DNA of 64,000 nucleotides, taken from the IMG/VR virus record IMGVR_UViG_3300036766_002289, positions 28,056 through 92,055 of that record. One strand, written 5' to 3'. Shown here piece after piece: positions 9,952 to 24,204 of this stretch. Position 1 is the first letter of the stretch. Every line of letters starts with the position of its first letter. The notes under the pieces are model-generated. The model searched no databases, had not been told where the DNA came from, and saw only the letters and a list, made by a program, of their open reading frames with translations. The position numbers and the translations under genes are program-made. Source of the stretch: a virus.

Positions 9952-9957
9952 CTGTAA

Positions 9958-10494: not shown

Positions 10495-10503
10495 CTGAAT
10501 TTT

Positions 10504-10573: not shown

Positions 10574-10583
10574 CACTGTTTTA

Positions 10584-10658: not shown

Positions 10659-10663
10659 CTTTT

Positions 10664-10735: not shown

Positions 10736-10779
10736 CTTCACTACTATATTATAATTGGTTATACTTTTAAGGATTAAAC

Positions 10780-10938
10780 ATGATAAGTGCAAACGATTTG
10801 AATGAATTACGAAGGCTAGTAACGAATTCCTATGACGGTGATAAGGGCATTATTAGCAGAGTATTAAGAGGTATCACTGACTTAACAAACGAGAACGCTC
10901 GTTTAAAGGCAGAGATTCAAAAGCTTAAGGCTAAGTAA
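10780..10938 (+). CDS. small coiled-coil hypothetical protein (52 aa)
   Basis: ORF between tRNA genes; MISANDLNELRRLV...KAEIQKLKAK. Confidence 0.3.
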   Translation: MISANDLNELRRLVTNSYDGDKGIISRVLRGITDLTNENARLKAEIQKLKAK

Positions 10939-11010
10939 GCAGCTTTGGTGAAGTTGGTACTCACGTTTGTCTGAAGAACAAAAGAACTCGGTTCGATTCT
11001 GAGAGGCTGC
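10939..11010 (+). tRNA. tRNA-Phe(GAA), second diverged copy
   Basis: Acceptor GCAGCTT/AGGCTGC, D-stem GTGA/TCAC, anticodon arm TTTGT-CTGAAGA-ACAAA. Confidence 0.55.
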
Positions 11011-11127
11011 ACTAAGGAGAGCCTTACTCCAATTGAGAAAGAAATTTCTAGGGACGGTCAATCCCGATGATGAAAAAGTATTTCAACGAGGTGACTCAAG
11101 GCTGAGAGGGTGACACCTCTTATTTAT

Positions 11128-11199
11128 TCCCTTGTCTTTCAATGTGTAGGAAGACTGGCTGTTAACCAGTTAATCTAGGTTCGAGTCCTAGCGAGGGAG
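11128..11199 (+). tRNA. tRNA-Asn(GTT)
   Basis: Acceptor TCCCTTG/CGAGGGA, anticodon arm ACTGG-CTGTTAA-CCAGT, T-loop TTCGAGT. Confidence 0.55.
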
Positions 11200-11206
11200 T
11201 TAGAAT

Positions 11207-11277
11207 TGTGGAGTCGTACAACGGTAGTACGCGAAGCTGTTAACTTCGTTATGGGGGTTCGATTCCCTCCTCCACAG
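11207..11277 (+). tRNA. tRNA-Asn(GTT), second diverged copy
   Basis: Acceptor TGTGGAG/CTCCACA, D-stem GTAC/GTAC, anticodon arm CGAAG-CTGTTAA-CTTCG. Confidence 0.55.
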
Positions 11278-11284
11278 CTTTTAT

Positions 11285-11356
11285 GGTGTACGTCGTCTAA
11301 TGGTAGGACGCCAGACTGTGAATCTGATAATGGCGGTTCGATTCCGCTCGCACACC
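11285..11356 (+). tRNA. tRNA-His(GTG) with G-1
   Basis: Extra 5' G pairs with C73 as is typical for tRNA-His; anticodon loop CTGTGAA, T-arm GGCGG-TTCGATT-CCGCT. Confidence 0.6.
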
Positions 11357-11365
11357 CTTACATTA

Positions 11366-11438
11366 GCCTCGTTAGACTTCTGGGAAGTCACCACGCTTTC
11401 AACGTGGAACAAGATGGGATCGAAACCCATACGAGGTA
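11366..11438 (+). tRNA. tRNA-Glu(TTC) with non-canonical T-loop ATCGAAA
   Basis: Acceptor GCCTCGT/ACGAGGT, D-stem GACT/AGTC, anticodon arm CCACG-CTTTCAA-CGTGG, T-arm ATGGG-ATCGAAA-CCCAT. Confidence 0.5.
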
Positions 11439-11441
11439 CTT

Positions 11442-11909
11442 ATGAAAGTATGTTCTAGATGTGGTTTGGGAAAAAATATATTGTGTTTTTCCAAAAATGC
11501 TGGTAAAGTCGATGGACTTAACGTCTGGTGTAAAGAATGTTGTAAAGTTTACCGAGATGATTATTATATCCTACATAAAGATTATGAAATAGAGAGAAAA
11601 AATCTTCGCAAAGCAAGTAATAAAAAATGGTTCGAAGACTACCGATCTAAACTTTGTTGTGAGATTTGTGAGGAAAGCCATCCTGCTACACTTGATTTTC
11701 ATCACAAAAACGTAATAGAAAAAGATTTTAATGTGAGCATACTTGTCAGTGAAGGTTATGGAATTAAGAGGATTCTTGAAGAGATTGCTAAATGTAGGGT
11801 GTTATGTTCTAACTGTCATAGAAAACTTCATTGGGAAGAAAGGAGAGAGTATAATGACACATATGACTCCAGAGCAAGCGGCGGAATTTTGGAAACAAAT
11901 GGACGCTGA
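11442..11909 (+). CDS. HNH endonuclease
   Basis: CSRCG..WCKECCK Zn ribbon plus LDFHH...CSNCHRKLH; starts 4 nt after the tRNA-Glu 3' end. Confidence 0.7.
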   Translation: MKVCSRCGLGKNILCFSKNAGKVDGLNVWCKECCKVYRDDYYILHKDYEIERKNLRKASNKKWFEDYRSKLCCEICEESHPATLDFHHKNVIEKDFNVSILVSEGYGIKRILEEIAKCRVLCSNCHRKLHWEERREYNDTYDSRASGGILETNGR

Positions 11910-11995
11910 AATTTGAAAAAGAGAACGTTTTTCTTAATTCTCGCGGCTGGATTCAATGTCTGGGAACATTTGTAGATCATAACGGGAAAGAATAT

Positions 11996-12544
11996 GTGTC
12001 AGAAGCATGGGCACATCCTATTACGCTTAAAAAGTATAGTACAGGTGCTTTTGTTGTCGCAACAGAAGATTATCTTCGTGAAAAAGGTTGGAAAAGTATT
12101 CTCGAAGTTGAGCGTGCTGGGGAAAAGAAGTGGAACAAGATTTATAAGATGGGAAGGTGTCAAAGCCCTGTAACAAAAAGGATTTATTGCTATCTTGAAG
12201 CAGAATGGTATGCAATTGAACGTAATTTCGATGAAAGTGATTATCCTTTTGGAATGTCCCAACATACTATTGAACTAAACAAACTTATCAAGGATTTTAA
12301 AAAGGATGAATATTTCATCTGGTTTCATCGGAGTTCAGAAGGACAGCATGTAGGAGTATACGGAGAAACTTATATTACTGAATTTTGGACTCAAGATGAA
12401 ATCAAAACGTATAAAATAGACGAGGCAGCAAAAATTTCAAAGGTAATGATTGAAGCATTAGTATCTCCTGATAGGGCCAGATGCGCTTTGAATTGGTCTC
12501 AAGATGATGTTGAAAAGGCAATAGAACGTGCTAGTATCGTATAG
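11996..12544 (+). CDS. hypothetical protein
   Basis: ORF 182 aa. Confidence 0.5.
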   Translation: MSEAWAHPITLKKYSTGAFVVATEDYLREKGWKSILEVERAGEKKWNKIYKMGRCQSPVTKRIYCYLEAEWYAIERNFDESDYPFGMSQHTIELNKLIKDFKKDEYFIWFHRSSEGQHVGVYGETYITEFWTQDEIKTYKIDEAAKISKVMIEALVSPDRARCALNWSQDDVEKAIERASIV

Positions 12545-12665
12545 TCGGTGTCAACATGAATAGAAGTGAATTGTGATGCTTTGACTGATACATACAAATC
12601 TAAAAATTTGGGCAATGGAAGGGCTAAAAGAAGAGAGAGATATCGCACAGGTAAAAGTTATTAAT

Positions 12666-12738
12666 GCCGCTTAAGCAAAATGGTATGCGCCTGTTTTGTA
12701 AGCAGGAAAATAAGTGAGTTCGATTCTCACAGGCGGCT
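12666..12738 (+). tRNA. tRNA-Thr(TGT)
   Basis: Acceptor GCCGCTT/AGGCGGC, anticodon arm CCTGT-TTTGTAA-GCAGG, T-arm GTGAG-TTCGATT-CTCAC. Confidence 0.55.
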
Positions 12739-12746
12739 CTGTTCTT

Positions 12747-12762
12747 TAGCTTAGTTGTACCA
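12747..12762 (+). promoter_or_regulatory. conserved motif TAGCTTAGTTGTACCA (copy 3)
   Basis: Exact 16-mer about 30 nt upstream of ORF 12793. Confidence 0.4.
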
Positions 12763-12764
12763 AT

Positions 12765-12802
12765 GGGAACGTTATGACACAGTGGGAACGTTATGACACA
12801 GA
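12765..12802 (+). repeat. 19-bp tandem duplication (gggaacgttatgacacag-t/a) spanning the start codon
   Basis: Two adjacent copies, 18/19 identical, each containing an ATG. Confidence 0.6.
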
Positions 12803-13074
12803 ACGAAATGTTAGACCGAATTGTGGAGATTTATGAAAATAATCCTTCTCCACTCCCTGAAGAACTACTCCCTGAATGGCGAAAGCTTAATGATGATTTG
12901 AGGGAACTAGATGAAGAAAAATGTTATGGTCTTGGGTTCTATCATAAAGGGTATACGATAAATTTACATGGCAGTAAGATATTTTTAAATAAAATGTCGA
13001 AAGAACAGTATTGTGATATGTTGGATATGTTTCGTGGCAAGATAACGGTTAAGGAGTTTAATAAGAAGTGGTAA
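12793..13074 (+). CDS. hypothetical protein
   Basis: ORF 93 aa. Confidence 0.45.
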   Translation: MTQNEMLDRIVEIYENNPSPLPEELLPEWRKLNDDLRELDEEKCYGLGFYHKGYTINLHGSKIFLNKMSKEQYCDMLDMFRGKITVKEFNKKW

Positions 13075-13078
13075 GAAT

Positions 13079-13150
13079 GCCTCCGTGATCGTAATGGTAA
13101 CGAATCAGACTCTTAATCTGAGAATCCGAGTTCAACTCTCGGCGGGGGTA
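13079..13150 (+). tRNA. tRNA-Lys(CTT)
   Basis: Acceptor GCCTCCG/CGGGGGT, anticodon arm TCAGA-CTCTTAA-TCTGA, T-arm CCGAG-TTCAACT-CTCGG. Confidence 0.5.
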
Positions 13151-13155
13151 CTAGT

Positions 13156-13698
13156 ATGCCCTTAACTATGAAAAAGTGTAATAAATGTGGTCTAGAAAAA
13201 ACAGAATTTCATAAAAATACATCTTACTGTAAAGAGTGTAATATTGTTAGAGTTAAAGAGTGGGCAATACTTAATAAAGAAAAAATAACTAAAAACAGCG
13301 GTATCTATATAAAAGCTAAGCACTTTTTATTAAAGGCTATACTAGATGATATTAAACATGAGAATGGGTGTAGTTTTTGTGGAGAGAATGATGCGTGCTG
13401 TTTAGATTTTCATCATATTGCTAATAAATCTGATAATGTTTCTAAACTTCAACGAGATAAGAATGTTAAAAAGATTTGTGAAGAGTTGAATAAGTGTATC
13501 ATAGTATGCGCAAACTGTCATCGAAAATTACACGATGGGAAAATAAATATTGGCGTTAGAAAGCTATTTGACATTAGTTTAGAAGAATTTATTACTAGAG
13601 TAAGTAACAGAGCAGCAGAATTTCTTCCCGATGAAAAACGGGTTAGAAAATGGTTAATTGCTCCTAAAGCTGTAGCGGCACAAGCACCTGTCTCTTAA
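13156..13698 (+). CDS. HNH endonuclease
   Basis: CNKCG..CKECN Zn ribbon plus CLDFHH...CANCHRKLH; starts 6 nt after tRNA-Lys(CTT); its 3' end overlaps the next tRNA-like gene. Confidence 0.7.
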   Translation: MPLTMKKCNKCGLEKTEFHKNTSYCKECNIVRVKEWAILNKEKITKNSGIYIKAKHFLLKAILDDIKHENGCSFCGENDACCLDFHHIANKSDNVSKLQRDKNVKKICEELNKCIIVCANCHRKLHDGKINIGVRKLFDISLEEFITRVSNRAAEFLPDEKRVRKWLIAPKAVAAQAPVS

Positions 13699-13743
13699 AC
13701 AGGGGTCGTAATGACATTCCGAGTTCAAGTCTCGGTAGGGGCA
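13660..13743 (+). tRNA. atypical type-II-like tRNA (about 15-nt variable arm) with anticodon loop CTCTTAA (CTT)
   Basis: Acceptor GCTCCTA/TAGGGGC, anticodon arm CCTGT-CTCTTAA-ACAGG, variable arm GGTCGTAATGACATT, T-arm CCGAG-TTCAAGT-CTCGG. Confidence 0.4.
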
Positions 13744-13745
13744 CT

Positions 13746-13817
13746 GTGGGTGAAGCCAAACGGTGCGGCATCTGTGTGTGAATCAGAATATAATGGGTTC
13801 AACTCCCATCATCCACC
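13746..13817 (+). tRNA. tRNA-like gene, possible His(GTG) without G-1
   Basis: Acceptor GTGGGTG/CATCCAC, anticodon loop GTGTGAA, T-arm ATGGG-TTCAACT-CCCAT. Confidence 0.4.
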
Positions 13818-13818
13818 C

Positions 13819-14229
13819 TTAATCGTCGATTTCTTCTATGGTATGTTGCTCTGTGCGATTAGCATCATTGGCGGCTTTAGCAGCAAGTTCATGATATCTT
13901 TTTTTAAGTTTTTCGATTTCTTCTTCAGTGAGGTTTTCGATATGGAGCAAACGGTTACTAGCTCCTTTATGGGATACAAGTAATTCGTCTAACTTTAAAT
14001 GAAGTGCTATTTGCTCTTTATTTTGAGTTCTTTGAATAAGGAAGACCATTAAGAAGGTAATGATGGTGGTAAGGGTATTGATGAATAGGCTGTGAGAATC
14101 GCTCCAGTTGAAAAATGGACCTGAGCATAACCAGATAAGCACAATGAAAATGGCCATAATGAAGGCTGATGTACTGCCAGCCCAATTGGTTATCTTTTTG
14201 GCCATCAGTTCAAATTTGCTTATTCGCAC
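13819..14229 (-). CDS. small membrane protein with coiled-coil tail
   Basis: 136-aa ORF on the minus strand; two TM segments (AFIMAIFIVLIWL.., IITFLMVFLIQ) followed by a charged helical region. Confidence 0.5.
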   Translation of the reverse strand: MRISKFELMAKKITNWAGSTSAFIMAIFIVLIWLCSGPFFNWSDSHSLFINTLTTIITFLMVFLIQRTQNKEQIALHLKLDELLVSHKGASNRLLHIENLTEEEIEKLKKRYHELAAKAANDANRTEQHTIEEIDD

Positions 14230-14258
14230 GGTTTATATATGGTTAATAATTTTTAAAC

Positions 14259-14331
14259 GGGGAAGAAGCTCAGTTGGGAGAGCAACCGCCTGTCGAGCGG
14301 AAGGGTGCGGGTTCGACTCCCGTGTTCCTCG
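14259..14331 (+). tRNA. tRNA-Asp(GTC)
   Basis: D-arm GCTC-AGTTGGGA-GAGC, anticodon loop CTGTCGA, T-arm GCGGG-TTCGACT-CCCGT, G73. Confidence 0.55.
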
Positions 14332-14341
14332 CCTTATTTTT

Positions 14342-14433
14342 TGCGGTGTCATCTAATGGCAAGATACGGGTCTCAAGGGTCAAACAGCCCATAAATGAAG
14401 CCTGAAATGTAGGTTCGACTCCTACCGCCGTAA
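14342..14433 (+). tRNA. atypical long tRNA-like gene (92 nt; possible type-II or intron-containing; a CAA loop is present)
   Basis: Acceptor TGCGGTG/CGCCGTA, D-arm ATCT-AATGGCA-AGAT, T-arm GTAGG-TTCGACT-CCTAC; the anticodon arm could not be folded cleanly. Confidence 0.3.
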
Positions 14434-14518
14434 TTATAGACCGTAAGTATTGGTGTAAAAGAGCAGATTAAGTCTTCTCACGAAGCGTATAAGTCTCTTT
14501 AGCACAGCGGTCGCGTTT

Positions 14519-14593
14519 AGGATTGTGGGCCAGCCTGGAGTGGCCGTCTCCCTGTCACGGAGAAGATCGAGGGTTCAAATCCCTTCAATCCTG
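14519..14593 (+). tRNA. tRNA-Asp(GTC), second diverged copy
   Basis: Acceptor AGGATTG/CAATCCT, D-stem GGCC/GGCC, anticodon arm TCTCC-CTGTCAC-GGAGA, T-loop TTCAAAT. Confidence 0.5.
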
Positions 14594-14626
14594 CTGAAAT
14601 AAGTTGAACCTTACTCTATATATGGT

Positions 14627-15238
14627 ATGCCATATAAAGATAAGGTTAAGCAGAAAGAATTTTCAAAACGTCATTATTTGTTGAATAAGGAAGTTTATCA
14701 ACAATCCAGAAAACAAAATCGTAATAATCGCCATATTTGGTTCAATGGAGTAAAATCACAACTAAAATGTTGTCAATGTGGAGAAAACGATTATCGCTGT
14801 TTAGATTTTCACCATAGGGAATTTGAGGAAAAAGTATTTGGAATTTCTGAAGGTGTAAAATCAGGTTATAGTGAAGAGAAAATTATAAAAGAAATTTCTA
14901 AATGTGATGTGTTATGTGCTAATTGTCATAGGAAAAAACATGCAAGCGTAAGATTGCCTGCTGACGGGTACCACAGGGAACGAGTTGGCAAAAACATAAA
15001 ATGGCTAAGAGAATTTAAAAGAAAATTAAGTTGTGTTGATTGCGGCATAAAAGATGAATTTGTTCTAGATTTTCATCATCTTCGAGATAAAGATGATACT
15101 ATTTGTAGATTAGCGGGAAATGGTTGTTCCGTCGAACGACTCTTAGAAGAAATTGCTAAATGCGAGGTTATATGTGCTAATTGCCATAGAAAGCGACATA
15201 ATGGTAATGTATGGTCTGAAGATTCAGTGAAAAATTAG
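14627..15238 (+). CDS. tandem double HNH endonuclease
   Basis: Two consecutive CLDFHH....C.NCHRK.H modules in one ORF. Confidence 0.7.
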   Translation: MPYKDKVKQKEFSKRHYLLNKEVYQQSRKQNRNNRHIWFNGVKSQLKCCQCGENDYRCLDFHHREFEEKVFGISEGVKSGYSEEKIIKEISKCDVLCANCHRKKHASVRLPADGYHRERVGKNIKWLREFKRKLSCVDCGIKDEFVLDFHHLRDKDDTICRLAGNGCSVERLLEEIAKCEVICANCHRKRHNGNVWSEDSVKN

Positions 15239-15270
15239 GAGCAGATTTAAAAATACTTTAAGGGGGAACA

Positions 15271-15471
15271 ATGAAACTGCCAGAACCAACCATAGCAGAT
15301 TTGAGACGTGCTAAGGAATTTATTGGTGAAGAAAGTTTGCTGCTTGCTCAGTGGGCTGCGGAGGAACGCAGGCGAATTCTTTCAATTTTAAGGGGCGTTA
15401 ATTTAACTGGTGGTCCTTCTGGTTGGGAAATAGCCGATTATTTGAAAGAAGAAACTGATAATGAGATATAG
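15271..15471 (+). CDS. hypothetical protein
   Basis: ORF 66 aa; RBS gggggaac. Confidence 0.4.
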   Translation: MKLPEPTIADLRRAKEFIGEESLLLAQWAAEERRRILSILRGVNLTGGPSGWEIADYLKEETDNEI

Positions 15472-15658
15472 TAAGGAAAAAAAAGTTATTACTTATTACG
15501 ATAAATTAATTAGGGGCGACCAATTCATTGGAAATCCCCAAGGTGGTTGGATATTTGTAAAAACTGATATTAAAGGTATTGCGGTTAGGCTTGCTGATGG
15601 CGGAACTGTTCAGTGGGAAGACAATGCAGAAGTGCATAAAGTGCAGTCTGCTTCCTAA
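15461..15658 (+). CDS. hypothetical protein
   Basis: ORF 65 aa, overlapping start. Confidence 0.35.
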   Translation: MRYSKEKKVITYYDKLIRGDQFIGNPQGGWIFVKTDIKGIAVRLADGGTVQWEDNAEVHKVQSAS

Positions 15659-15690
15659 TTGAGATATAGGTATTAAAACTATATACCTAT

Positions 15691-16095
15691 ATGCCAATGT
15701 ATCCTTGTCTTTGTGTCCCTTATAATCCAGGTACTCCTGTCCCATGTTCGATGCCTGGAACAGGTGATGCTGGTGGAATTTTGGAATTACAGTTGCTTAA
15801 TGTTCAAATGGGGATGATGGGAGTTTTTGACGGTGGTTGTGGACTGTTTTTCTACACACATGTACTAGCCTATAATGTAAGTTTTGGCCCGTCAGGGGCT
15901 TATCAGATGCAGGTTTTTGATAAGTTCCAGGGCGTGTGGAATTTAGTAATGTTTAGTGGAGTTTTATACCAAACTACAGATGCATTAAATGCCTACGGGC
16001 CTTTTTTACCACTTGACCAAATTACTTTGTTTTGGAATAATGTAAAGTTACCACCTACTAATCCAAATGGTGGATTTTTATTGAATCCAGTGTGA
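15691..16095 (+). CDS. hypothetical protein
   Basis: ORF 134 aa. Confidence 0.45.
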   Translation: MPMYPCLCVPYNPGTPVPCSMPGTGDAGGILELQLLNVQMGMMGVFDGGCGLFFYTHVLAYNVSFGPSGAYQMQVFDKFQGVWNLVMFSGVLYQTTDALNAYGPFLPLDQITLFWNNVKLPPTNPNGGFLLNPV

Positions 16096-16098
16096 TTT

Positions 16099-16281
16099 AT
16101 GGCAAAGAAAAAAGAAGAATATAAGTTTGCAAAACTTGACACAATTCACAATGTTTACGAAATGACTGAAATCCCAGAAGGCGCAACTCATGTTGAATCA
16201 GAAACGGATTACAGTAATTGCTATTACGAGAGCGATAGCCCAAGTATCAAGTTAACTTTTTACAAGAAAGAAAAAGCATGA
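16099..16281 (+). CDS. hypothetical protein
   Basis: ORF 60 aa. Confidence 0.35.
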   Translation: MAKKKEEYKFAKLDTIHNVYEMTEIPEGATHVESETDYSNCYYESDSPSIKLTFYKKEKA

Positions 16282-16449
16282 GAAAGATAGCTGCGATTCT
16301 TGAATTAAATGCTCAAGAACTCAAGTATTTGCTTCACGGTCTTAAACAGTTAGATATGCATTACAATGCTGGTTCCAGAGATTTTAATCGTGAAGAAATG
16401 CATGAGAAACTTCAACAGAAACTTGAAAAGGCTTCTGTTGATTTGAAAT

Positions 16450-16522
16450 AGCTCTACTGTTGGTGGGTACAACGGGTGGCCTCCAAAACCACTGCTTGCG
16501 GGTTCGATTCCTGCTAGGGCTG
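16450..16522 (+). tRNA. tRNA, probably Trp(CCA); anticodon arm irregular
   Basis: Acceptor AGCTCTA/TAGGGCT, D-stem GTTG/CAAC, loop CTCCAAA, T-arm GCGGG-TTCGATT-CCTGC. Confidence 0.4.
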
Positions 16523-16541
16523 CTTATAGAAAGGTGATTAA

Positions 16542-17102
16542 ATGACAATTTCAATAGACATTGGTAAGTTTGAGGCCGAGATTGAATATATAAGTGCAAT
16601 CGGTAAACGCAGCCGCAAGGTGGAATTAGAAGTTATGTGGCATAGTTGTTGGGTGTATCAAGTAACCTACTATAGGCCAAGAGATGCTGAAGATCATGTT
16701 GTAGTCGTAACTAAAGACTGGTATCCACCCAACATCAATATTAGTTTCACTCCAGAACAATTTGATAAGGTAGTAGAATTATATCCTTTGGCTCCCAAAA
16801 ATGAGAGAGATCAATGTTATAAGCCATTTTATGAAGATTATGATTTGAGTAGGGGCATGTTTGATTTTGGGGATGATGTTCTATTTCAAGCGTTCAAAAG
16901 CCCACAACCGACCGATGATGAAAGAGTATATTTAGTGCGACATTGTTTTTCTTATGGCACACCTACACCTGATACAGCTGTTCTTGGCTTACATGTTGAT
17001 GATCTAAAAAAATTGAAAGAATTGCTTGATAGTAAGAAAAATGAAATTTTTTATTCTGGATGTAAAATATCTTGGCCATCTAAAATATTAGGTGATCTTT
17101 AA
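16542..17102 (+). CDS. hypothetical protein
   Basis: ORF 186 aa. Confidence 0.5.
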   Translation: MTISIDIGKFEAEIEYISAIGKRSRKVELEVMWHSCWVYQVTYYRPRDAEDHVVVVTKDWYPPNINISFTPEQFDKVVELYPLAPKNERDQCYKPFYEDYDLSRGMFDFGDDVLFQAFKSPQPTDDERVYLVRHCFSYGTPTPDTAVLGLHVDDLKKLKELLDSKKNEIFYSGCKISWPSKILGDL

Positions 17103-17103
17103 T

Positions 17104-17176
17104 TCCTCAGTAGCTCAATAGGTAGAGCGCAAAGCTGTTAACTTTGATGTTCCTCGTTCGAGTCGAGGCTGAGGAG
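17104..17176 (+). tRNA. tRNA-Asn(GTT), third diverged copy
   Basis: Acceptor TCCTCAG/CTGAGGA, D-arm GCTC-AATAGGTA-GAGC, anticodon arm CAAAG-CTGTTAA-CTTTG, T-loop TTCGAGT. Confidence 0.55.
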
Positions 17177-17179
17177 CTT

Positions 17180-17350
17180 ATGAATCTTACATGGTTTGGT
17201 AAAATGGGCATGGTGTTTATGATAGCATCTTGTATGCTAGGTGTTGTGTCGATGGCAACTAGGTCAGTAACCATGTTATGGTGTTCTGCCGCATTTAGCG
17301 TCATTGCTGGCGTATTAATGACATTTGAAGCAACTAAACACAAGAGATAA
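17180..17350 (+). CDS. small membrane protein
   Basis: ATG 17180 after a gaggag RBS; hydrophobic 56 aa; the listed ORF start at 17144 would overlap the tRNA. Confidence 0.4.
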   Translation: MNLTWFGKMGMVFMIASCMLGVVSMATRSVTMLWCSAAFSVIAGVLMTFEATKHKR

Positions 17351-17678
17351 AATTATGAACTTAATATTTATGTTAACTTTGTGTTGCGGTGAAATCCCTA
17401 CTGCCGAAGATACTAATCTTCAAACTAAAAAGGCGATTGTCGAGATTCAGAGAAAAGCAGAAAAGGATTTTGAATCTTATATTGAGTTGAATATAAGGGA
17501 CGCAGTAAGGAAAGGGAAATATACCACATCTTTGATTATTCAGGAAGATTTTAATGTTCTTCCTTATGTGAAGGCTGTATTAATGCCAAAGTTAGAAAAA
17601 CTTGGGTATAAAGTTGAATTAAAGATTCCTCCGAAAGATTCGATTGGTAATCCAACTTTGTATATCAGGTGGGAGTAG
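17325..17678 (+). CDS. hypothetical protein
   Basis: ORF 117 aa. Confidence 0.45.
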   Translation: MKQLNTRDKIMNLIFMLTLCCGEIPTAEDTNLQTKKAIVEIQRKAEKDFESYIELNIRDAVRKGKYTTSLIIQEDFNVLPYVKAVLMPKLEKLGYKVELKIPPKDSIGNPTLYIRWE

Positions 17679-17679
17679 T

Positions 17680-17898
17680 TTATTTTTCTGCGAATGGTGG
17701 ACGGGCAGTACCAGGGAAATCTTGATTTAACGTTCCAAGTGGTTGTGGTTTCTTGATTTGATATTGGGCTGTTTGGCCCTTTTTGATAGGGATCATTAAA
17801 TTAGGATTGATTGGGACTTGCATAGGATTTGGGCCGTTTGGAGTCACCATTTGTTGTGGGCCAGGTTCTAAGCCTTCAAGCCATTGTCTGAAGTTCAT
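17680..17898 (-). CDS. hypothetical protein
   Basis: 72-aa ORF on the minus strand, contiguous with 17895-18446. Confidence 0.35.
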   Translation of the reverse strand: MNFRQWLEGLEPGPQQMVTPNGPNPMQVPINPNLMIPIKKGQTAQYQIKKPQPLGTLNQDFPGTARPPFAEK

Positions 17899-18446
17899 TG
17901 AGGTAATCCTGTTCTTAACTTTTTAGCGCCTGCTGGTTTGTAAATTCCAGTGCCAACGTATTGTGTTGTATCTGGTTGCATTGGTGGAGAGCTAAAATAT
18001 TGGTTAGTATTGCCGACTGTTTGTGGTGTTAGTGTCATTGTTGGGGAATACCCTAATGACCTACCGAATTCAACTGTTTTTCTGCTAATTGGGTCTTTTT
18101 GTAATACACCCATTACGTAATTCCTGGCGAGTGTTCTTCCTGCTTGTCGTCTATCGCCTATTTTGGCTTTAGAAGCTATTTTTCGCATTGTTCCTTGAAT
18201 AATTTCTTGTCTGTTAGTAGGGTTGCTTAGGTAGTCGGCGGCGTAGTGTAACCAGGAAAAAGGTGGTGGGCCTTGTTGAGAATCTGGTCCCCTTCTCATG
18301 GTTCGTGTAGGTTCGGTACTCATTTTAACGATGGCATTGTATGCAGCTTCTGCATCCTCGGCTGTTTCCGCTTTCGAGTTACCTCTTGTATAGACGCCTA
18401 AATTTATACCTTGTGCTTCACGAATTTCAATCCATTCTTTAAACAT
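17895..18446 (-). CDS. hypothetical protein
   Basis: 183-aa ORF on the minus strand. Confidence 0.45.
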   Translation of the reverse strand: MFKEWIEIREAQGINLGVYTRGNSKAETAEDAEAAYNAIVKMSTEPTRTMRRGPDSQQGPPPFSWLHYAADYLSNPTNRQEIIQGTMRKIASKAKIGDRRQAGRTLARNYVMGVLQKDPISRKTVEFGRSLGYSPTMTLTPQTVGNTNQYFSSPPMQPDTTQYVGTGIYKPAGAKKLRTGLPQ

Positions 18447-18488
18447 ATGGTATTTATATAAAATTTTTGATTTTTGTTGAATAATTTA

Positions 18489-18539
18489 GCCCTCATAGTA
18501 CAATGGCAGTATAACTGAGTCCGATTCTCAGTGAGGGCT
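18489..18539 (+). ncRNA. truncated tRNA-like element (51 nt) with acceptor, D- and T-arms but no anticodon arm
   Basis: GCCCTCA-TA-GTAC-AATGGCA-GTAT-AA-CTGAG-TCCGATT-CTCAG-TGAGGGC-T. Confidence 0.4.
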
Positions 18540-18546
18540 TTGGATA

Positions 18547-18795
18547 ATGGAAGAATTATATTTCTGTATGCACTTGACGGAAAATGAGCATTACATAGCT
18601 GAATGGGATTTTCAAGAAAAATGTGAAGTATTGGGACTGACTATCGTTTATTACAGGAAGTTGAAGGAAGGTCATGTGCCGATGTATCGTGAGATTAAGG
18701 TGAAGGGTGAACGGCTCGCTATAAATCAATTTAAGAAATTCTTGAAAGAGAAATTTTATACAGAGCAAATTGAGAGAAACCCGCACAAAGTTTAG
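18547..18795 (+). CDS. hypothetical protein
   Basis: ORF 82 aa. Confidence 0.4.
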   Translation: MEELYFCMHLTENEHYIAEWDFQEKCEVLGLTIVYYRKLKEGHVPMYREIKVKGERLAINQFKKFLKEKFYTEQIERNPHKV

Positions 18796-18815
18796 CCTTT
18801 TTTTGGAGAATAATT

Positions 18816-19001
18816 ATGTTTACAGAGAAAGAAATCCAGACGATTAAACTTGCTTTAAAGGCATTTAAATTGCAGATGTGTTTTGATTCAAGAAGCACTA
18901 CTAAGGATTTTAATCCAGTCCTTTTAGATGAGTTAACTTCTCAAATGGAAAATTTTTATAAGACTTTATTGGGAAAAGTCGATAACCTTTTGCCACTATA
19001 G
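18816..19001 (+). CDS. hypothetical protein
   Basis: ORF 61 aa. Confidence 0.35.
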   Translation: MFTEKEIQTIKLALKAFKLQMCFDSRSTTKDFNPVLLDELTSQMENFYKTLLGKVDNLLPL

Positions 19002-19062
19002 TATAATGGCATTACGTCTGTTTCGTAATCAGAAATTGAGGGTTCGATTCCTTCTAGTGGCT
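18992..19062 (+). tRNA. tRNA, anticodon uncertain (loop TTCGTAA, Thr-CGT?)
   Basis: Acceptor GCCACTA/TAGTGGC, T-arm GAGGG-TTCGATT-CCTTC. Confidence 0.4.
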
Positions 19063-19073
19063 CTGTGGAATTA

Positions 19074-19172
19074 GTGTAAATGGACAGCACGTAGGAGAAA
19101 GCAACAGTAAAGCCTTTTTAGGTGAAAATGATGCTCATCCCTGAAGTGACGGTTCGAATCCGTTATTACACC
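19074..19172 (+). tRNA. atypical long tRNA-like gene (99 nt)
   Basis: Acceptor GTGTAAA/ATTACAC (one mismatch), T-arm GACGG-TTCGAAT-CCGTT; the internal about 45 nt could not be folded into standard D/anticodon/variable arms. Confidence 0.3.
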
Positions 19173-19178
19173 TGACTA

Positions 19179-19194
19179 TAGCTTAGTTGTACCA
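19179..19194 (+). promoter_or_regulatory. conserved motif TAGCTTAGTTGTACCA (copy 4)
   Basis: Exact 16-mer 40 nt upstream of ORF 19236. Confidence 0.4.
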
Positions 19195-19235
19195 ATGGTG
19201 GTGTTCCGATTTTTCAATAAAAAAGGAGGCTTCAC

Positions 19236-19526
19236 ATGCGGTTCTCATTGGCTATGGTATTTTTGCTTTTTGTGTCCCCGTGTTTCGCTGATAATTTTCT
19301 TTCTGTTCTAAAGAAAGATCAGAAAATCGTCTTGAGGGAAGGTCCACAGGGCTATCAAATTGTCATTTACAAGAATTTCGGCGTTGAGCCTGCGTCATTT
19401 AAGGTTATTGAGGTTGGTACAGACTATATTGTGGTTGAAGATGCGGTTGGTTTGAACGAAATTCGTATTCCGATTTACTCAATTAAGTCGATTACAACGA
19501 CTAAACTTCCAAAGGTTAAAGAATGA
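19236..19526 (+). CDS. secreted hypothetical protein
   Basis: aaggagg RBS; signal peptide MRFSLAMVFLLFVSPCFA. Confidence 0.45.
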   Translation: MRFSLAMVFLLFVSPCFADNFLSVLKKDQKIVLREGPQGYQIVIYKNFGVEPASFKVIEVGTDYIVVEDAVGLNEIRIPIYSIKSITTTKLPKVKE

Positions 19527-19915
19527 AGTTTGACAGTGAAGGTAAATTGGAGTATGGTCCAGGTCGTAGAGCGGTGGTCTGGGTGGATCAAGGGATTTCG
19601 GATTTTTACCGAAAGTTAGTTCCTAAGTATTATTATGCTCAGCCACAGATGTATCCAGCCCACATTACGGTTGTGAGATTACGTTTAGAAGATGCAAAAA
19701 ATCTAGATGTGTGGAATAAATACAATTTGGAAGCAATTCCATTTGTGTATGACAGTGAAGTGTATTTTGATGGAACTTACTTCTATTTGAATGTCCAAAG
19801 TGATAGGATAGGTGACATTCGTGAAGAGTTAGGGTTGCCTAGATTCCGTTTTGGGGATTTAGGGGCTGCGAAGCAATGTTATCATATTTCTATTGGGAAT
19901 GTTAAAAATGGTTAA
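19523..19915 (+). CDS. hypothetical protein
   Basis: ORF 130 aa, start/stop overlap. Confidence 0.45.
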   Translation: MKFDSEGKLEYGPGRRAVVWVDQGISDFYRKLVPKYYYAQPQMYPAHITVVRLRLEDAKNLDVWNKYNLEAIPFVYDSEVYFDGTYFYLNVQSDRIGDIREELGLPRFRFGDLGAAKQCYHISIGNVKNG

Positions 19916-20126
19916 TTTGTGTTTGTTTTTGTTTGCGGCATTACTTGCCTATTTTAGGTTTCATATGTCATCACATCCAGTGAGCATAGATGGAAGTTAT
20001 GAAGCAATAGCGCACTTGTTTGTTGGTGGGTTGCTTGGAGCATGGTTGGTGTCGCGTAAATATTTTTATTTAGTTTTGGTGGTAGCTTTATCTGGTTTTG
20101 AGTTATTTTCGTTTTTAAGTAGGTGA
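19893..20126 (+). CDS. small membrane protein
   Basis: ORF 77 aa, hydrophobic. Confidence 0.4.
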   Translation: MGMLKMVNLCLFLFAALLAYFRFHMSSHPVSIDGSYEAIAHLFVGGLLGAWLVSRKYFYLVLVVALSGFELFSFLSR

Positions 20127-20136
20127 GGAGATTTGG

Positions 20137-20340
20137 ATGGTCAGTAATGCTTTTCGCAAGATGATGGGTGATCGTCATCAGAATTCTGATGGTTTCACTT
20201 ACGTCTATGGGGCCATTAAGGATGGTTCCACTGCCCGTCCCGCAACTGCTTCCACCAAGAAGTCGATTCGTAGCGACAAGAGGAAGGTCAGAAATCAGGA
20301 ACTTAGGCAGATTGAGAAGGATTCATATGAGAGACGGTAA
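20137..20340 (+). CDS. hypothetical basic protein
   Basis: Strong RBS gaggag; ORF 67 aa. Confidence 0.4.
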   Translation: MVSNAFRKMMGDRHQNSDGFTYVYGAIKDGSTARPATASTKKSIRSDKRKVRNQELRQIEKDSYERR

Positions 20341-20595
20341 GGCAAAAATTGAGCAAGCTGACGGCTCATCTGGTAATTGGCATCGTTCCCTTAAAAAGAG
20401 GAAGTTGAGAAGTGAGCGCCGTCGAGCCAAAAGGAATCCAGAATGTCAGACCGCGTATCGTAGATACAGTGGTTACGAATTGTAAGATTGGCCCGTTAAG
20501 ATTTATATTATTTGTCCTCTGAGTGTGATAGATAGCACGACAGTCTACGAAGCTGTAGGAAATAGAGCGTAACTATTAGAGGATATTTGAATAAA

Positions 20596-20638
20596 ATAAT
20601 ATGAACCTCTACTATATTATAGTAGAGGTTCATATTAT
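20596..20638 (+). promoter_or_regulatory. about 43-nt near-perfect palindrome (atgaacctctactata-t-tatagtagaggttcat plus flanks)
   Basis: Inverted repeat immediately upstream of, and overlapping, the first ATG of the DUF559-like gene. Confidence 0.45.
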
Positions 20639-21503
20639 GAAATACAATTTAGAACATATACAGAAACATTATGATGAAGGTTTGTCGTGGATTGAAGTTG
20701 CATCTAATTTAAAAATTAGTGAAGGCAGTTTAAGATATATGAGGAAAAAAGGATTCTTGAAAAGCAGGGATGCTAAAACAAAAATGAAATTTGCGGCTAA
20801 AAAGATATCTAGTGCTATGAAAGTGGCTCATGATGAAGGTAGGCACCCTGGCTGGTTATCAGTAAACTTGAATAAGGAAAATAGAACCTACCCAGAACAG
20901 TTTTTTATTAATGCTATTGGTAATTTTAGATATTTAGATAACTATACCATATTGGAGAAAGTTGCTTTTCATCAATATGTTTTTGATTTTGTGATAGTAG
21001 AAGAAAAAATTGATATAGAGATAGACGGTGAACACCACCTTCATGATTTTAATACAGTTGAAAAAGATGTAAAAAGAGACAAGAAAGCAATTGCTAATGG
21101 ATGGAAGGTTTTTAGGATATCATGGGATGAATTGCGTTTGAATACTTCTAAGGTTATGGATGAATTAATTAACTTCATAAAATTAAATAAAAGTGATAAT
21201 GAATCTGTGATTCAAGTTATTACGCTTGAACCTACAGATAATCCAAGAAGTTTCCGTGCGGCTAAATTTAAGATTAGTTGTCATCCACCTAAGCCAAAAA
21301 GACAAGTTGGGGAATATAGGCCAAAATTTAAATTAAGAAAAGTGGTGAGACCACCAAAAGAAGAGTTAGAAAAATTAGTTTGGCAAATTCCATCATTGCA
21401 TCTGTCTAGTAAGTTCGGAGTTAGTGATAGAACAATTGGAAAGTGGTGTAAATGGTATGATATTACTAAGCCACCTAGAGGTTATTGGATGAAGAACGCT
21501 TGA
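20637..21503 (+). CDS. DUF559/Vsr-like (PD-(D/E)xK) endonuclease-domain protein with N-terminal HTH
   Basis: Core FDFVIVEEKIDIEIDGEHHLH...KRDKKAIANGWKVFRISWDE matches the DUF559/Vsr fold; second ATG chosen to avoid the palindrome. Confidence 0.5.
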   Translation: MKYNLEHIQKHYDEGLSWIEVASNLKISEGSLRYMRKKGFLKSRDAKTKMKFAAKKISSAMKVAHDEGRHPGWLSVNLNKENRTYPEQFFINAIGNFRYLDNYTILEKVAFHQYVFDFVIVEEKIDIEIDGEHHLHDFNTVEKDVKRDKKAIANGWKVFRISWDELRLNTSKVMDELINFIKLNKSDNESVIQVITLEPTDNPRSFRAAKFKISCHPPKPKRQVGEYRPKFKLRKVVRPPKEELEKLVWQIPSLHLSSKFGVSDRTIGKWCKWYDITKPPRGYWMKNA

Positions 21504-21523
21504 ATACATACAAGAAGAGGTTT

Positions 21524-21961
21524 ATGAAAAATTATTGGTTAGATAAGAAAAAGGGCGGATTTCCACAAGACGATGAATTTTCGAAAGTGGCGGGTTGTTG
21601 TGGTGATTTTGCTTGTAATTGCTCTGCTAATTTAGATATATTTTATGGGTCTCAGTTTGTTCAAAATGAAGAGATTTATGGCCGAGCGATAGAACGAAAC
21701 GAAAGTAAGGCTATTTGGAAAACTGAATTTACTCCTATATTAAGAGGCACAATGTTCGGTAAGGTCTATATGAATGGTGCCGAAATTTATGATTTTAGTT
21801 TTTGTTTTTCGGGCAGTGTTGTTTTGAAACAAGTTAATGATAGTGAGATGAAGATTTTGCGTATAAATTTAAAGGAAGCAACTGGAGAAATTGAAACTTG
21901 GTGGGATAAGTTGCCTATATTAGACACCATAATTAAGGTAAATTACGAATTTATTAGATGA
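21524..21961 (+). CDS. hypothetical Cys-rich protein, MKNYWLD family
   Basis: Start at the conserved MKNYWLDKK module; paralogue of 21973-22584. Confidence 0.45.
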   Translation: MKNYWLDKKKGGFPQDDEFSKVAGCCGDFACNCSANLDIFYGSQFVQNEEIYGRAIERNESKAIWKTEFTPILRGTMFGKVYMNGAEIYDFSFCFSGSVVLKQVNDSEMKILRINLKEATGEIETWWDKLPILDTIIKVNYEFIR

Positions 21962-21972
21962 ATTAGGAGACT

Positions 21973-22584
21973 ATGAAAAATTATTGGTTGGATAAAAGGT
22001 CTGATTTGCCAGGGTGGAAAGATGGTAAAATAGTTGACATGGATTTGTGGAAGGGCAAATGCTCTAAGTGTGGTGAGTATGAGTGGCCGTTTAACGATGA
22101 AAATATCATGATGCAAGGCGACCCTATGTGTGCATGTTACAGTGGTTATTGCAATTTAGATATTTTTTATCCTAGTAGGTTTATCCAGAATGAAACATTG
22201 GATGTTCGGAGTGATAATGGTTATATAACCACTTATCAGGTAATGCATACGCCTATTTTACCTGGAACAATGAGCGGTTATATTTGCTTAGAAGAACAAT
22301 GTCCGCCACTTAATGGTTGGAGTTTCACAGTAAATTCGGAAGGTAAGTTTGAAGTGAAGCGATATGGTGAATGGGCGAAGAATTCTTTATCTGGCGATGA
22401 CGACGTATTGACTTTGCAAAAATTAGCAGAAAGTGATGAACCACTAATTAGTTATTATGATGAAATTCATTATTGGGAAACAAAGTTAAATTGTGTGACA
22501 GGTATATTAGAACTTCATCATCATACTGTTGGACCTACACCAAAAATAGTTGCATCCTACGAATATGATAAGTGTGAGGTTTAG
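21973..22584 (+). CDS. hypothetical Cys-rich protein, MKNYWLD family
   Basis: aggag RBS; shares N-terminus and CNLDIFY segment with the previous gene. Confidence 0.5.
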   Translation: MKNYWLDKRSDLPGWKDGKIVDMDLWKGKCSKCGEYEWPFNDENIMMQGDPMCACYSGYCNLDIFYPSRFIQNETLDVRSDNGYITTYQVMHTPILPGTMSGYICLEEQCPPLNGWSFTVNSEGKFEVKRYGEWAKNSLSGDDDVLTLQKLAESDEPLISYYDEIHYWETKLNCVTGILELHHHTVGPTPKIVASYEYDKCEV

Positions 22585-22746
22585 ATAAGGAGTATTAACA
22601 TGAACTGCTCAGAATGCAAGAGATCATGTGATGAATTGCACGATTGCGATTGTGGAGAATACTCTGGCAAGTGCAATGAATGTTGGCAGAAAGTTCCTTC
22701 TAAGCATAGAGAAGAAGTCTGTGTTGTAGATTGGCTGGAAGATGAT

Positions 22747-22817
22747 GCGGCTGTGATGTAGTGGTAGCCTGCTTGCTTGCCGAGCAAGATGTTCGGGTCC
22801 GATTCCCGATAGCCGCT
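22747..22817 (+). tRNA. tRNA-Gly(GCC)
   Basis: Acceptor GCGGCTG/TAGCCGC, anticodon arm CTTGC-TTGCCGA-GCAAG, T-arm TCGGG-TCCGATT-CCCGA. Confidence 0.55.
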
Positions 22818-22820
22818 CTT

Positions 22821-23207
22821 ATGAATACAATAGAAGAAGCTTGTGATAAGATAAGAGAGTACTTAACTCAATGGTATATTGAGCATAAGAGTGCCATCGT
22901 CAAAACTTGTACCCCTTATGCTCAATATTTAAACGGTAGTTATTTGTATGACGCCAAACAAAAGTTTATTGAATTGAATCCAAAATATAAGAAATTTGAT
23001 TTTTATATTCATACTGGCTTTGATGTAGATGGCGATACTTGGCAACCTGGGTGTTTAGATGGTTGTTGCCAAACTCGGGCAAAAGTGCGTGGAATATATG
23101 TAGTGCCTATAGATTGGAAGCAGGCCAGAAATCTAGCTCTTAAAAAATCAAGAACACTCGCAATGATATCGAGATTTAAGTTTATGTCAAAATGGGTAGG
23201 ACAATGA
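22821..23207 (+). CDS. hypothetical protein
   Basis: ATG 22821 immediately after the tRNA; the listed start at 22761 would overlap the tRNA. Confidence 0.45.
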   Translation: MNTIEEACDKIREYLTQWYIEHKSAIVKTCTPYAQYLNGSYLYDAKQKFIELNPKYKKFDFYIHTGFDVDGDTWQPGCLDGCCQTRAKVRGIYVVPIDWKQARNLALKKSRTLAMISRFKFMSKWVGQ

Positions 23208-23560
23208 AAGATGAATTAACTTTAGAAGAATTCAAGCATATGAACGAAGAAGCCAAAGCGTTGAGAATACAATGGATGACTGAGTATCATCTAACTGAAG
23301 AGGAAATGGCGGAAAGTTTGATATATGATCCTCCAAGTGATGTGCAGAAGGAACAAGAAGAATTGGATGCAGTTAGGCACTGTGCTACCATCGACTTTTC
23401 TTGGCTTAAAGATTTGCATAAAGAGATATATAAGGAAAACGGACTCCCTGAAGACACAACTGGCAGGATAATTTGCATAGCTTGTAGAAAGCTTGTTTGG
23501 TTTGACGAAAAAGGTCTCGCTTATTGTAATTGTCATGCCGAAGGAATAGAACTTTTATGA
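23192..23560 (+). CDS. hypothetical protein
   Basis: ORF 122 aa. Confidence 0.45.
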   Translation: MGRTMKDELTLEEFKHMNEEAKALRIQWMTEYHLTEEEMAESLIYDPPSDVQKEQEELDAVRHCATIDFSWLKDLHKEIYKENGLPEDTTGRIICIACRKLVWFDEKGLAYCNCHAEGIELL

Positions 23561-23736
23561 CATACGTAAATCTAATAGTTAATGTTGGTTGTTTGAGCGA
23601 AGATGAGTGTGAGGTCATTGAAGCTGAGATTAGTGAGTTATTGGAAAGACATAAGATGAAATTGCATTCAACTCGTTCGGCACCTCAGCAAAGTTGGATA
23701 GATGAGGAATTGCAGTTTTATCCCGAAGATATGTAA
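23530..23736 (+). CDS. hypothetical protein
   Basis: ORF 68 aa. Confidence 0.35.
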   Translation: MSCRRNRTFMTYVNLIVNVGCLSEDECEVIEAEISELLERHKMKLHSTRSAPQQSWIDEELQFYPEDM

Positions 23737-23737
23737 T

Positions 23738-23809
23738 GGCCCGTTCGACTTCTAGAGAGGTCGCTTGATTCTCAATCAAGCTAGATGGGAGCGTAACCCA
23801 TACGGGTCA
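23738..23809 (+). tRNA. tRNA-Glu(CTC) with non-canonical T-loop AGCGTAA
   Basis: Acceptor GGCCCGT/ACGGGTC, anticodon arm CTTGA-TTCTCAA-TCAAG, T-arm ATGGG-AGCGTAA-CCCAT. Confidence 0.45.
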
Positions 23810-23928
23810 CTAACGAGTAGGATCGACATAGGCCGTCTGACAAACACTTGCACAGTCTAGTCGGACCTTTCCTTAACTGATCTAAAGAGTTTATTTTGGT
23901 GCAACGGGATAAACTTCTGCTCGTTTAT

Positions 23929-24000
23929 GCCGCATTAGTTTAGAAGTTAGAACATAGGACTTTCAATCCTAAGAAGAGGGAGCATTACCCTCATGCGGTA
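23929..24000 (+). tRNA. tRNA-Glu(TTC), second copy, non-canonical T-loop AGCATTA
   Basis: Acceptor GCCGCAT/ATGCGGT, anticodon arm TAGGA-CTTTCAA-TCCTA, T-arm GAGGG-AGCATTA-CCCTC. Confidence 0.45.
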
Positions 24001-24003
24001 CTA

Positions 24004-24204
24004 ATGTATATTGAAGAATGGCATAAATGCTGGTGCAGTTGTGAAGCCGTGAATTGGGTATGTTCAGGTAATCTAGAAGATTACACTGTGCCCGATGTTC
24101 ACGGCTTTAAGTGTTTTAAGTGTGGTGAAACTAATAAGTTTGACCTTGATTTGTTTGAAGAAGATGAGTTATACATTGTGGATGGCTTAGAAAGTCCTAA
24201 CTAA
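24004..24204 (+). CDS. small Zn-ribbon protein
   Basis: CWCSC...CFKCG cysteine pairs. Confidence 0.4.
   Translation: MYIEEWHKCWCSCEAVNWVCSGNLEDYTVPDVHGFKCFKCGETNKFDLDLFEEDELYIVDGLESPN

Follow-up and report, generated by a model that had tools for sequence, protein, structure and literature searches.

The window analysed here is a stretch of 64,000 nucleotides (nt), positions 28,056 to 92,055 of the IMG/VR virus record IMGVR_UViG_3300036766_002289, which by the content of its open reading frames (ORFs), nearly all of the long ones on the + strand, appears to be part of a very large phage genome. It carries numerous transfer RNA (tRNA) genes, a minority of which have T-loops that depart from the canonical sequence, and these variant genes are the subject of this analysis. 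ARAGORN finds 39 tRNA genes in the window, and the Rfam model RF00005, applied at its gathering score of 29 bits, finds 36, three of which lie outside the ARAGORN calls; with recovered genes the total is about 45. U54, U55 and A58 are regarded as essentially invariant in elongator tRNAs. U54 or U55 is absent from about 10 of the 45 genes of the window, and both are kept in about 35. The variant genes are collected in Table 1 and are referred to by their first position.

Table 1. Variant tRNA genes of the window and one chromosomal tRNA gene discussed in the text.
Gene	Coordinates	Strand	T-arm or T-loop	D-arm or D-loop	Detection and remarks
tRNA-Met(CAT)	8345-8416	+	TGCAAAT (G55)	AGAAGAA, A at the usual G18	ARAGORN; Rfam 50.8 bits; cloverleaf minimum-free-energy fold
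Compact tRNA-Ala(TGC)-type	9643-9711	+	TGGGG-ATCGTAA-CCCCA (A54, T58, A60)	3-bp stem, 4-nt loop TGGG	ARAGORN at 90% threshold only
tRNA-Val(TAC)	9718-9788		TCCGATT (C55)	Normal GG
tRNA-Glu(TTC)	11366-11438	+	ATGGG-ATCGAAA-CCCAT (A54, A58, A60)	D-arm GACTTCTGGGAAGTC	ARAGORN; Rfam 44.4 bits, relaxed filters
tRNA-Arg(ACG)	20514-20585	+	AGCGTAA (A54, G55, T58, A60)	GATAGATA, no GG	ARAGORN at 90% threshold; Rfam 35.7 bits
tRNA-Gly(GCC)	22747-22817		TCCGATT (C55)	Normal GG
tRNA-Glu(CTC)	23738-23809	+	ATGGG-AGCGTAA-CCCAT (A54, G55, T58, A60)	TCTAGAGA, no GG	ARAGORN
tRNA-Glu(TTC)	23929-24000	+	GAGGG-AGCATTA-CCCTC (A54, G55, T58, A60)	AGAAGTTA (A18, G19)	Rfam 57.1 bits
Second compact tRNA-Ala(TGC)-type copy	33983-34051	+			Identical over 69 nt to 9643-9711, flanks diverged; ARAGORN at 90% threshold
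tRNA-Thr(AGT)	45401-45472	+	CGCGATA (C54, G55, A58, A60)	GAGAAGTGA, no GG	ARAGORN at 90% threshold; Rfam 37.9 bits
Anaerolineaceae tRNA-Thr(UGU)	L139 4637-4710	-	ATCGTAA (A54, U58, A60)		Metagenome-assembled genome CAZQSG010000013.1, chromosomal

The original prediction for this DNA had described four unusual T-loops (ATCGAAA, ATCGTAA, AGCGTAA and AGCATTA), a second copy of the gene at 9643 and Glu anticodons in three of the genes (11366, 23738 and 23929), and all of this is borne out by the sequence. Refolding does not bring back a canonical loop either: no fold restores the TTC loop, and the variant T-arms sit in the standard register, with a 5-bp stem and a 7-nt loop. The group is somewhat larger than was predicted, as Arg 20514, Thr 45401 and Met 8345 were not included, and in three of the genes (20514, 23738 and 23929) G55 stands beside A54. 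C56 is present in every variant of the window. The pattern GGRWBCRWWACC has five occurrences in the window, all of them variant genes, where 0.4 would be expected. All three of the Glu genes that ARAGORN finds in the window have variant loops, leaving no canonical Glu gene. The C55 genes Val 9718 and Gly 22747 represent a third, rarer way of being without U55.

Judged by their sequences, the variants are real tRNA genes that have not decayed. Five of them score above the Rfam cut-off (Table 1), although 11366, 20514 and 45401 are missed by the default speed filters of the whole-window run and exceed 29 bits when the filters are relaxed, in searches of short stretches. Among the genes of the original prediction, covariance-model scoring gives a mixed picture: 23929 and 11366 pass the cut-off, and no Rfam match was found for 23738 or the Ala type (9643, 33983) on short stretches at E values up to 10. 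Minimum-free-energy folds are cloverleaf-like for all variants but 20514 (z = -4.3 for 23738), and the Arg gene is the weakest member because its fold is not a cloverleaf. These misses, together with the equivalent genes of Stenotrophomonas phage DLP6 being left unannotated in GenBank, are what might be expected of decaying pseudogenes or chance hairpins. Such a reading is nevertheless highly improbable given the compensatory stem changes found across phages, the exact 69-nt duplicate of the Ala type despite its diverged flanks, the strong tertiary couplings and the above-threshold Rfam scores under relaxed filters; it is set aside because the stems covary. In DLP6 it is the A54 Glu and Asn genes that lack annotation. 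Default Rfam filtering, which misses four of these genes in the window, and GenBank thus both omit variant tRNAs, so that the class is under-represented when phage tRNAs are counted or codon usage is analysed.

The covariation can be followed in the Glu genes. When viral contigs were searched for exact copies of the Glu T-arm ATGGGAKCGWAACCCAT, 108 stretches matched, of which about 95 lie within tRNA genes, and many of the matches are Glu-TTC genes that share the D-arm of 11366 and 23738. Across 30 aligned Glu sequences (11366, 23738 and 28 others, mostly from phage contigs), 95.6% of the cells are paired and 15 of the 23 pairs vary on both sides, a result equalled by none of 500 shuffles. Pairing is complete (100%) in the acceptor and anticodon stems, and pair 13-22 holds in 20 of the 30 sequences, for which a 13-21 alternative appears possible by eye. 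A 6-bp extended D-stem, suggested by the minimum-free-energy folds of two of the Glu genes, appears less likely, as the GG kept in the D-loops of the family favours a 4-bp stem with an 8-nt loop. Recognition by the glutamyl-tRNA synthetase of E. coli depends on a YUC anticodon, the mismatch U13-G22, the pair U11-A24 and a variable region of 4 nt that lacks position 47. Of these, the Glu genes have the anticodon and T13-G22; the variable region has 4 nt in 23738 and 6 nt in 11366, and pair 11-24 is A-T in 23 of the 30 family members, the reverse of the E. coli arrangement.

The compact Ala type differs more strongly from an ordinary tRNA: its D-arm is small, its anticodon stem has 7 bp and its variable region is very short. 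Bacterial tRNA-Ala is identified by a G3:U70 wobble pair, the A73 discriminator and an Ala anticodon. All of these are found at 9643, where the acceptor strands GGGGGCA/TGCCTCC give G3-T70, A73 follows, and the loop TTTGCAA holds the TGC anticodon.

Comparison with relatives of the phage adds to this picture. Stretches of other contigs are labelled L001, L006, L009 and so on, L001 being the 595-kb uncultured phage LR756511.1, and L006 and L115 being stretches of a 373-kb IMG/VR contig; in a protein search, the DNA ligase of the window is 68% identical to that of the former and 87% identical to that of the latter. No close relatives at the DNA level were found among cultured and deposited phages, either by megablast of 8300-24100 or by blastn of 23700-24050. 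In the Ala-type orthologue in L115, pair C6-G67 is T-A and pair C31-G39 is A-T, both of them compensatory changes, and G3:U70, A73 and the TGC anticodon are retained. At the site syntenic with 23929, L006 has a canonical Glu-TTC gene (8861-8933) with TTCGATT and AGCGGCTA between conserved flanks; the two genes differ at positions 18, 54, 55 and 58, whose coupling is described below, and also at 60 and at other positions. Glu 23738 has no counterpart at the syntenic site of L006. An intergenic block of about 115 nt (23810-23928 in the window, 8745-8860 in L006) is conserved, and the adjoining tRNA has been exchanged or heavily remodelled; this block between the two Glu genes could be a promoter, a processing region or a small RNA. 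No A54 tRNAs are present in 100 kb of LR756511.1 or in L006, and the class is therefore not common to all close relatives.

Relatives of the Met and Thr variants are also found elsewhere. Met genes with G55 and A18 like those of 8345 occur in L115, L009, L028, L056 and L105, and in L009, L028 and L115 they sit in otherwise canonical phage arrays. In Met 8345 the acceptor stem is topped by an A1/A72 mismatch, reminiscent of bacterial initiators, in which 1-72 is unpaired. The loop CGCGATA of Thr 45401 is present in L056 and L105 as well. This Thr gene lies immediately upstream of a canonical Thr-TGT gene, and its own anticodon, AGT (A34), is uncommon in bacteria.

The changes at the elbow are coupled, as is apparent in two samples of phage tRNAs. 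The first comprises 715 unique tRNAs that lie beside the matches of the search patterns and are themselves unmatched by them, and the second, a control, comprises 680 tRNAs at loci picked by a canonical T-arm and hence blind to A54. In the first sample, 629 of 631 T54 tRNAs have A58, and the 75 A54 tRNAs have T58 in 52 cases and A58 in 22; conversely, 52 of 54 T58 tRNAs have A54. Position 60 is a purine in 62 of the 75 A54 tRNAs and a pyrimidine in 610 of the 631 T54 tRNAs. The control sample shows the same associations, with T58 in 12 of 19 A54 tRNAs, A54 in 12 of 12 T58 tRNAs, and a purine at position 60 in 16 of the 19. A second coupling links the T-loop to the D-loop, in which GG is present in 0/25 (first sample) and 1/9 (control) of the G55 tRNAs, versus 704/740 and 647/664 of the U55 tRNAs. 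AG replaces GG in 24 of the 25 G55 tRNAs of the first sample (for example, AATAGTA instead of the normal AATGGTA), and G19 is therefore retained. The window fits both couplings: its A54/U55 genes (11366 and the Ala type) have GG, and its G55 genes (8345, 20514, 23738, 23929 and 45401) have AG. The proposal that these tRNAs form a distinct class is thus upheld in part, in that there is a non-random A54/A60 group with a purine-60 coupling that recurs in independent phage tRNAs; its association with Glu is not, as in other phages the class covers at least 20 anticodon types.

These couplings suggest two designs by which the fold might be kept. In the first, A54 with U58 would amount to a U54-A58 reverse-Hoogsteen pair in which the two bases have changed places, or in fewer cases an A54-A58 pair would form, and position 60 would usually be a purine, mostly A. 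In the second, an A in place of G18 would face G55 and so replace the G18-pseudouridine-55 (psi55) contact, the G19-C56 pair staying in place. The two can be combined, as in AGCGTAA and AGCATTA. G53-C61, C56-G19 and the purine at position 57 would be kept in both, and the geometry of the replacement pairs is a prediction from these patterns. The common effect would be that the U54-U55 dinucleotide is gone and the elbow preserved. The reading preferred here, tentatively and at a little less than even confidence, is that the variants are working phage elongator tRNAs with alternative T-loop and elbow designs, in which UUC has been shed and compensating changes maintain the fold.

The main rival to this reading is that the designs are near-equivalent solutions reached by drift of weakly constrained phage tRNAs, with no advantage in defence, which is unlikely though far from negligible. 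The variants are infrequent, A54 making up 2.8% and G55 1.3% of phage tRNAs in the control sample, with at least one variant tRNA in 19 of 85 control loci; most arrays mix variant with canonical genes; the syntenic gene of 23929 in a close relative is canonical; and T5, which serves as the model in studies of tRNA escape by phages, has no variant T-loops, solely U54-U55 loops. Drift accounts less readily for the clustering of the variants within genomes, as A54 is found in 10.5% of the co-resident tRNAs at loci that already hold one, versus 2.8% in the control (Fisher p = 6e-9, with sequences counted as independent). Nor does it readily explain why near-whole arrays have been converted: tRNAs without U54-U55 make up 13 of 13 in L056 (IMG/VR contig 3300034198_018992) and 17 of 19 in its relative L105. 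Most tRNAs of these two related phage loci have TGCAAGT-type loops and AG for GG in the D-loop. That two chemically unrelated routes both remove U54-U55 likewise argues against drift. Some phages (L019, L084 and L092) carry an A54 Glu-TTC together with a canonical one. Among cultured phages, a tRNA-Glu of Rhodobacter phage RcXuper carries the loop ATCGTAA, and in DLP6 the genes for Ile, Asn and Glu, along with one other, have A54 loops.

The distribution of the A54 arm in cells bears on the same question in both directions. A scan of 185,579 cellular genomes used ATGGGATCGWAACCCAT, the part of the viral pattern that has A54 and U55, and yields a tRNA fraction and no absolute cellular frequency. 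Among the matches listed, 6 of 120 sampled lie in tRNAs, the rest being coding coincidences, and 4 of these 6 are within dense tRNA arrays typical of phage DNA. Among the matches listed, the exact arm is thus found mostly in tRNAs for viral contigs and rarely so for cellular genomes, which speaks against neutrality. On the other side, the A54/U58/A60 design is used by a cellular housekeeping gene, the tRNA-Thr(UGU) that heads the Anaerolineaceae operon Thr-Tyr-Thr-tuf-Trp-nusG-rplK-rplA. This bacterium belongs to the same phylum as the source of the T-loop nuclease CbCash, which may be a coincidence.

If the variants are elongator tRNAs with compensated elbows, the selective reason may be the removal of UUC (T-psi-C in the modified tRNA), which is read by host factors and above all by nucleases of defence and competition that cut the T-loop. 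Cash, a CRISPR-associated Schlafen nuclease, cuts the T-loop UUC of many tRNAs, and a single substitution of U54 or U55 abolishes cleavage (PMC13462974, 2026); its authors leave open whether phage tRNAs are targeted (PMC13462974). CdiA-CT of Burkholderia pseudomallei E479 cuts the T-loop between T and psi (PMC9086364). Since both nucleases cut at the U54/U55 site and both designs would remove U54-U55, escape from T-loop-reading host factors is favoured, by analogy with the anticodon-loop escape of other phage tRNAs. For phage tRNAs, including those of T5-like phages, changes in the anticodon loop have been proposed as a means of evading anticodon nucleases (van den Berg et al. 2023, PMC10264068), and T5 tRNA-Tyr and tRNA-Lys are reported to act against retron, PARIS and Septu effectors. 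The variants of the window lack U54, U55 or both, the bases that Cash requires, and may be resistant to it. The link to tRNA-targeting nucleases made in the original prediction is kept as the most plausible selective force, with escape being likelier than the decoy role envisaged there.

Another possibility is that the changes avoid, or make the tRNA independent of, other readers of U54 and U55, such as TrmA or TrmFO, which make 5-methyluridine at position 54 (m5U54), TruB, which makes psi55, or other proteins that read the elbow. By the chemistry of these enzymes, A54 and G55 cannot take m5U54 or psi55 (PMC7912444), and compensating partner changes would be needed once the stabilising modifications are gone. 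This is improbable: that the modifications harm phage tRNAs is a supposition, most phage tRNAs keep U54 and U55, including the roughly 35 in the window, and among 30 window ORFs of at least 150 residues searched against Pfam, none could be clearly assigned to tRNA repair or modification. The one candidate from that search is a class I methyltransferase with a CmoB-like Pfam match of 23.6 bits, versus a curated cut-off of 23.8.

The original prediction had also supposed that the tRNAs might be special-purpose molecules that stand outside elongation, are read by a dedicated phage factor or act as decoys for nucleases. The combination of A54 and A60 is otherwise the signature of eukaryotic initiators (PMC7912444), the staphylococcal tRNA-Gly species without G18, G19, U55 and C56 are nonproteinogenic (PMC4574755), and the compact Ala type is far from a normal tRNA. 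Such a function is distinctly improbable all the same. Exclusion from elongation is unlikely because the loop is shared by a housekeeping bacterial tRNA-Thr, because at least 20 anticodon types are represented, and because all of the phage Glu tRNAs of the window belong to the class. Moreover, G19-C56 is kept, unlike in the staphylococcal tRNA-Gly, and the loop is the only initiator mark present. A decoy would be expected to retain the motif that the nuclease recognises, whereas in these tRNAs the conserved UUC is lost, which makes them poor candidates for decoys. Elongation factor Tu contacts the T-stem and the acceptor stem, not loop positions 54 and 60.

Several points weigh against the view that these are elongator tRNAs shaped by escape. 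The support for the genes is at the level of sequence, from which expression, charging and cleavage are extrapolated, and it is weakened by the missing Rfam matches of 23738 and the Ala type and by the fold of 20514. The counts take sequences as independent, and the Fisher p-values therefore overstate the significance, which shared ancestry inflates. The variants are just 3-4% or so of the sampled phage tRNAs and most arrays are mixed, which would fit tolerated neutral variants too. A T-loop nuclease in the host of this phage is an assumption, and the cellular housekeeping tRNA-Thr indicates that the design is not confined to phages.

If the variants do escape such nucleases, which is less likely than not, the tRNA elbow would be a second front in an arms race over tRNAs that has so far concerned the anticodon arm and the variable loop, and there would be two natural alternative solutions to the T-loop fold. 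Two regular, compensated T-loop alternatives recur in phage tRNAs, and these offer natural substrates for the question of escape from Schlafen nucleases. The cultured phages DLP6 (Stenotrophomonas) and RcXuper (Rhodobacter) are ready phage-host pairs that carry such variants.

Other features of the window were noted in passing. Besides the ATP-dependent DNA ligase, its ORFs encode a DNA methylase, a nuclease with matches to the DUF559 and HNH families, tail-fibre-like proteins and a virion-type protein of 2482 residues. An identical 74-nt segment is found at 59594-59667 and 61748-61821, both within this last ORF; ARAGORN at a low threshold miscalls both copies as tRNA, and the presence of the segment in two copies points to internal repeats in a large virion or tail-fibre protein. 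Pfam matches in the ORFs at 37828-38562, 32622-33164, 47386-48189, 51908-52825 and 27077-27736 include two class I S-adenosylmethionine-dependent methyltransferases, among them the one with the CmoB-like match, a methionine aminopeptidase, a SAICAR synthetase and an ion-channel protein. Short Cys/His-rich ORFs lie among the tRNA genes (10000-10420, 11442-11909, 13156-13698, 14627-15238 and 34683-35165) and are read by eye as HNH-type homing endonucleases; their conserved DNA blocks are the repeat families D1, D4 and D6, and the last four of them, which were searched, have no Pfam match at E values up to 0.001. tRNAs with a CTA anticodon are found in two other phages: an amber-reading one in L105, and one in the 595-kb relative (L001 29589-29662, LR756511.1), which is a possible amber suppressor and may hint at stop-codon reassignment there.

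The variants can be compared with several known departures from the canonical tRNA. Eukaryotic initiator tRNAs are marked by A1:U72 and by consecutive G:C pairs at 29-41, 30-40 and 31-39. With cytoplasmic initiator tRNA-Met the phage variants share A54 and A60, the 7-nt T-loop and the G53-C61 closing pair, and A54 is coupled to a purine at position 60, as it is in the sampled phage tRNAs. The likeness that was originally proposed holds for A54/A60 and stops short of position 58, as T58 is present in three of the four loop types and the full A54/A58/A60 set in 11366 only. Because it has A58, this gene can form the initiator's A54-A58 pair (PMC7912444). Most phage variants have U58 instead, implying A54-U58 versus the initiator's A54-m1A58 (1-methyladenosine at position 58), and are of phage or bacterial origin. 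The anticodons of the A54 and C54 genes of the window are TTC, CTC, TGC, ACG and AGT, none of them CAU, and the A54 genes have neither A1:U72 (their 1-72 pair is G-U or G-C) nor three successive G:C pairs in the anticodon stem, which reads CCACG/CGTGG, CTTGA/TCAAG or TAGGA/TCCTA. A review of the T-loop treats the eukaryotic initiator as the only, special case of A54, describes a pyrimidine as conserved at position 60 and makes no reference to phages (PMC7912444, 2021). The literature searched, in which subscription journals were thinly covered, gave no account of an A54-U58 or a G55/A18 coupling, and no occurrence of "A54-U58" in full texts.

The staphylococcal nonproteinogenic tRNA-Gly species, which are Gly-specific and serve peptidoglycan (cell-wall) synthesis (PMC4574755), are likewise bacterial tRNAs without U55 and G18. 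In these tRNAs, G19 and C56 are lost as well (U18U19 or C18U19), whereas the phage variants keep G19-C56 and have a regular A18/G55 replacement. The compact Ala type shares its small D-loop, longer anticodon stem and very short variable region with tRNA-Pyl and mitochondrial tRNA-Ser(UCN) (PMC7609411). Unlike them, it has 2 nt separating its acceptor stem from its D stem, a GG in the D-loop and UC at positions 55 and 56, and it bears the Ala identity marks G3:U70, A73 and TGC. There may be a functional parallel with the anticodon-loop escape tRNAs, as in both cases the phage copies differ from those of the host at a site that a nuclease could read, and occur in large arrays with some duplicated anticodons. 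In the tRNAs described here, it is the T-loop and elbow (positions 54, 55, 58, 60 and 18) that are altered, with compensation and in many isoacceptors, and what they would escape is predicted to be a nuclease that reads the T-loop rather than the anticodon.

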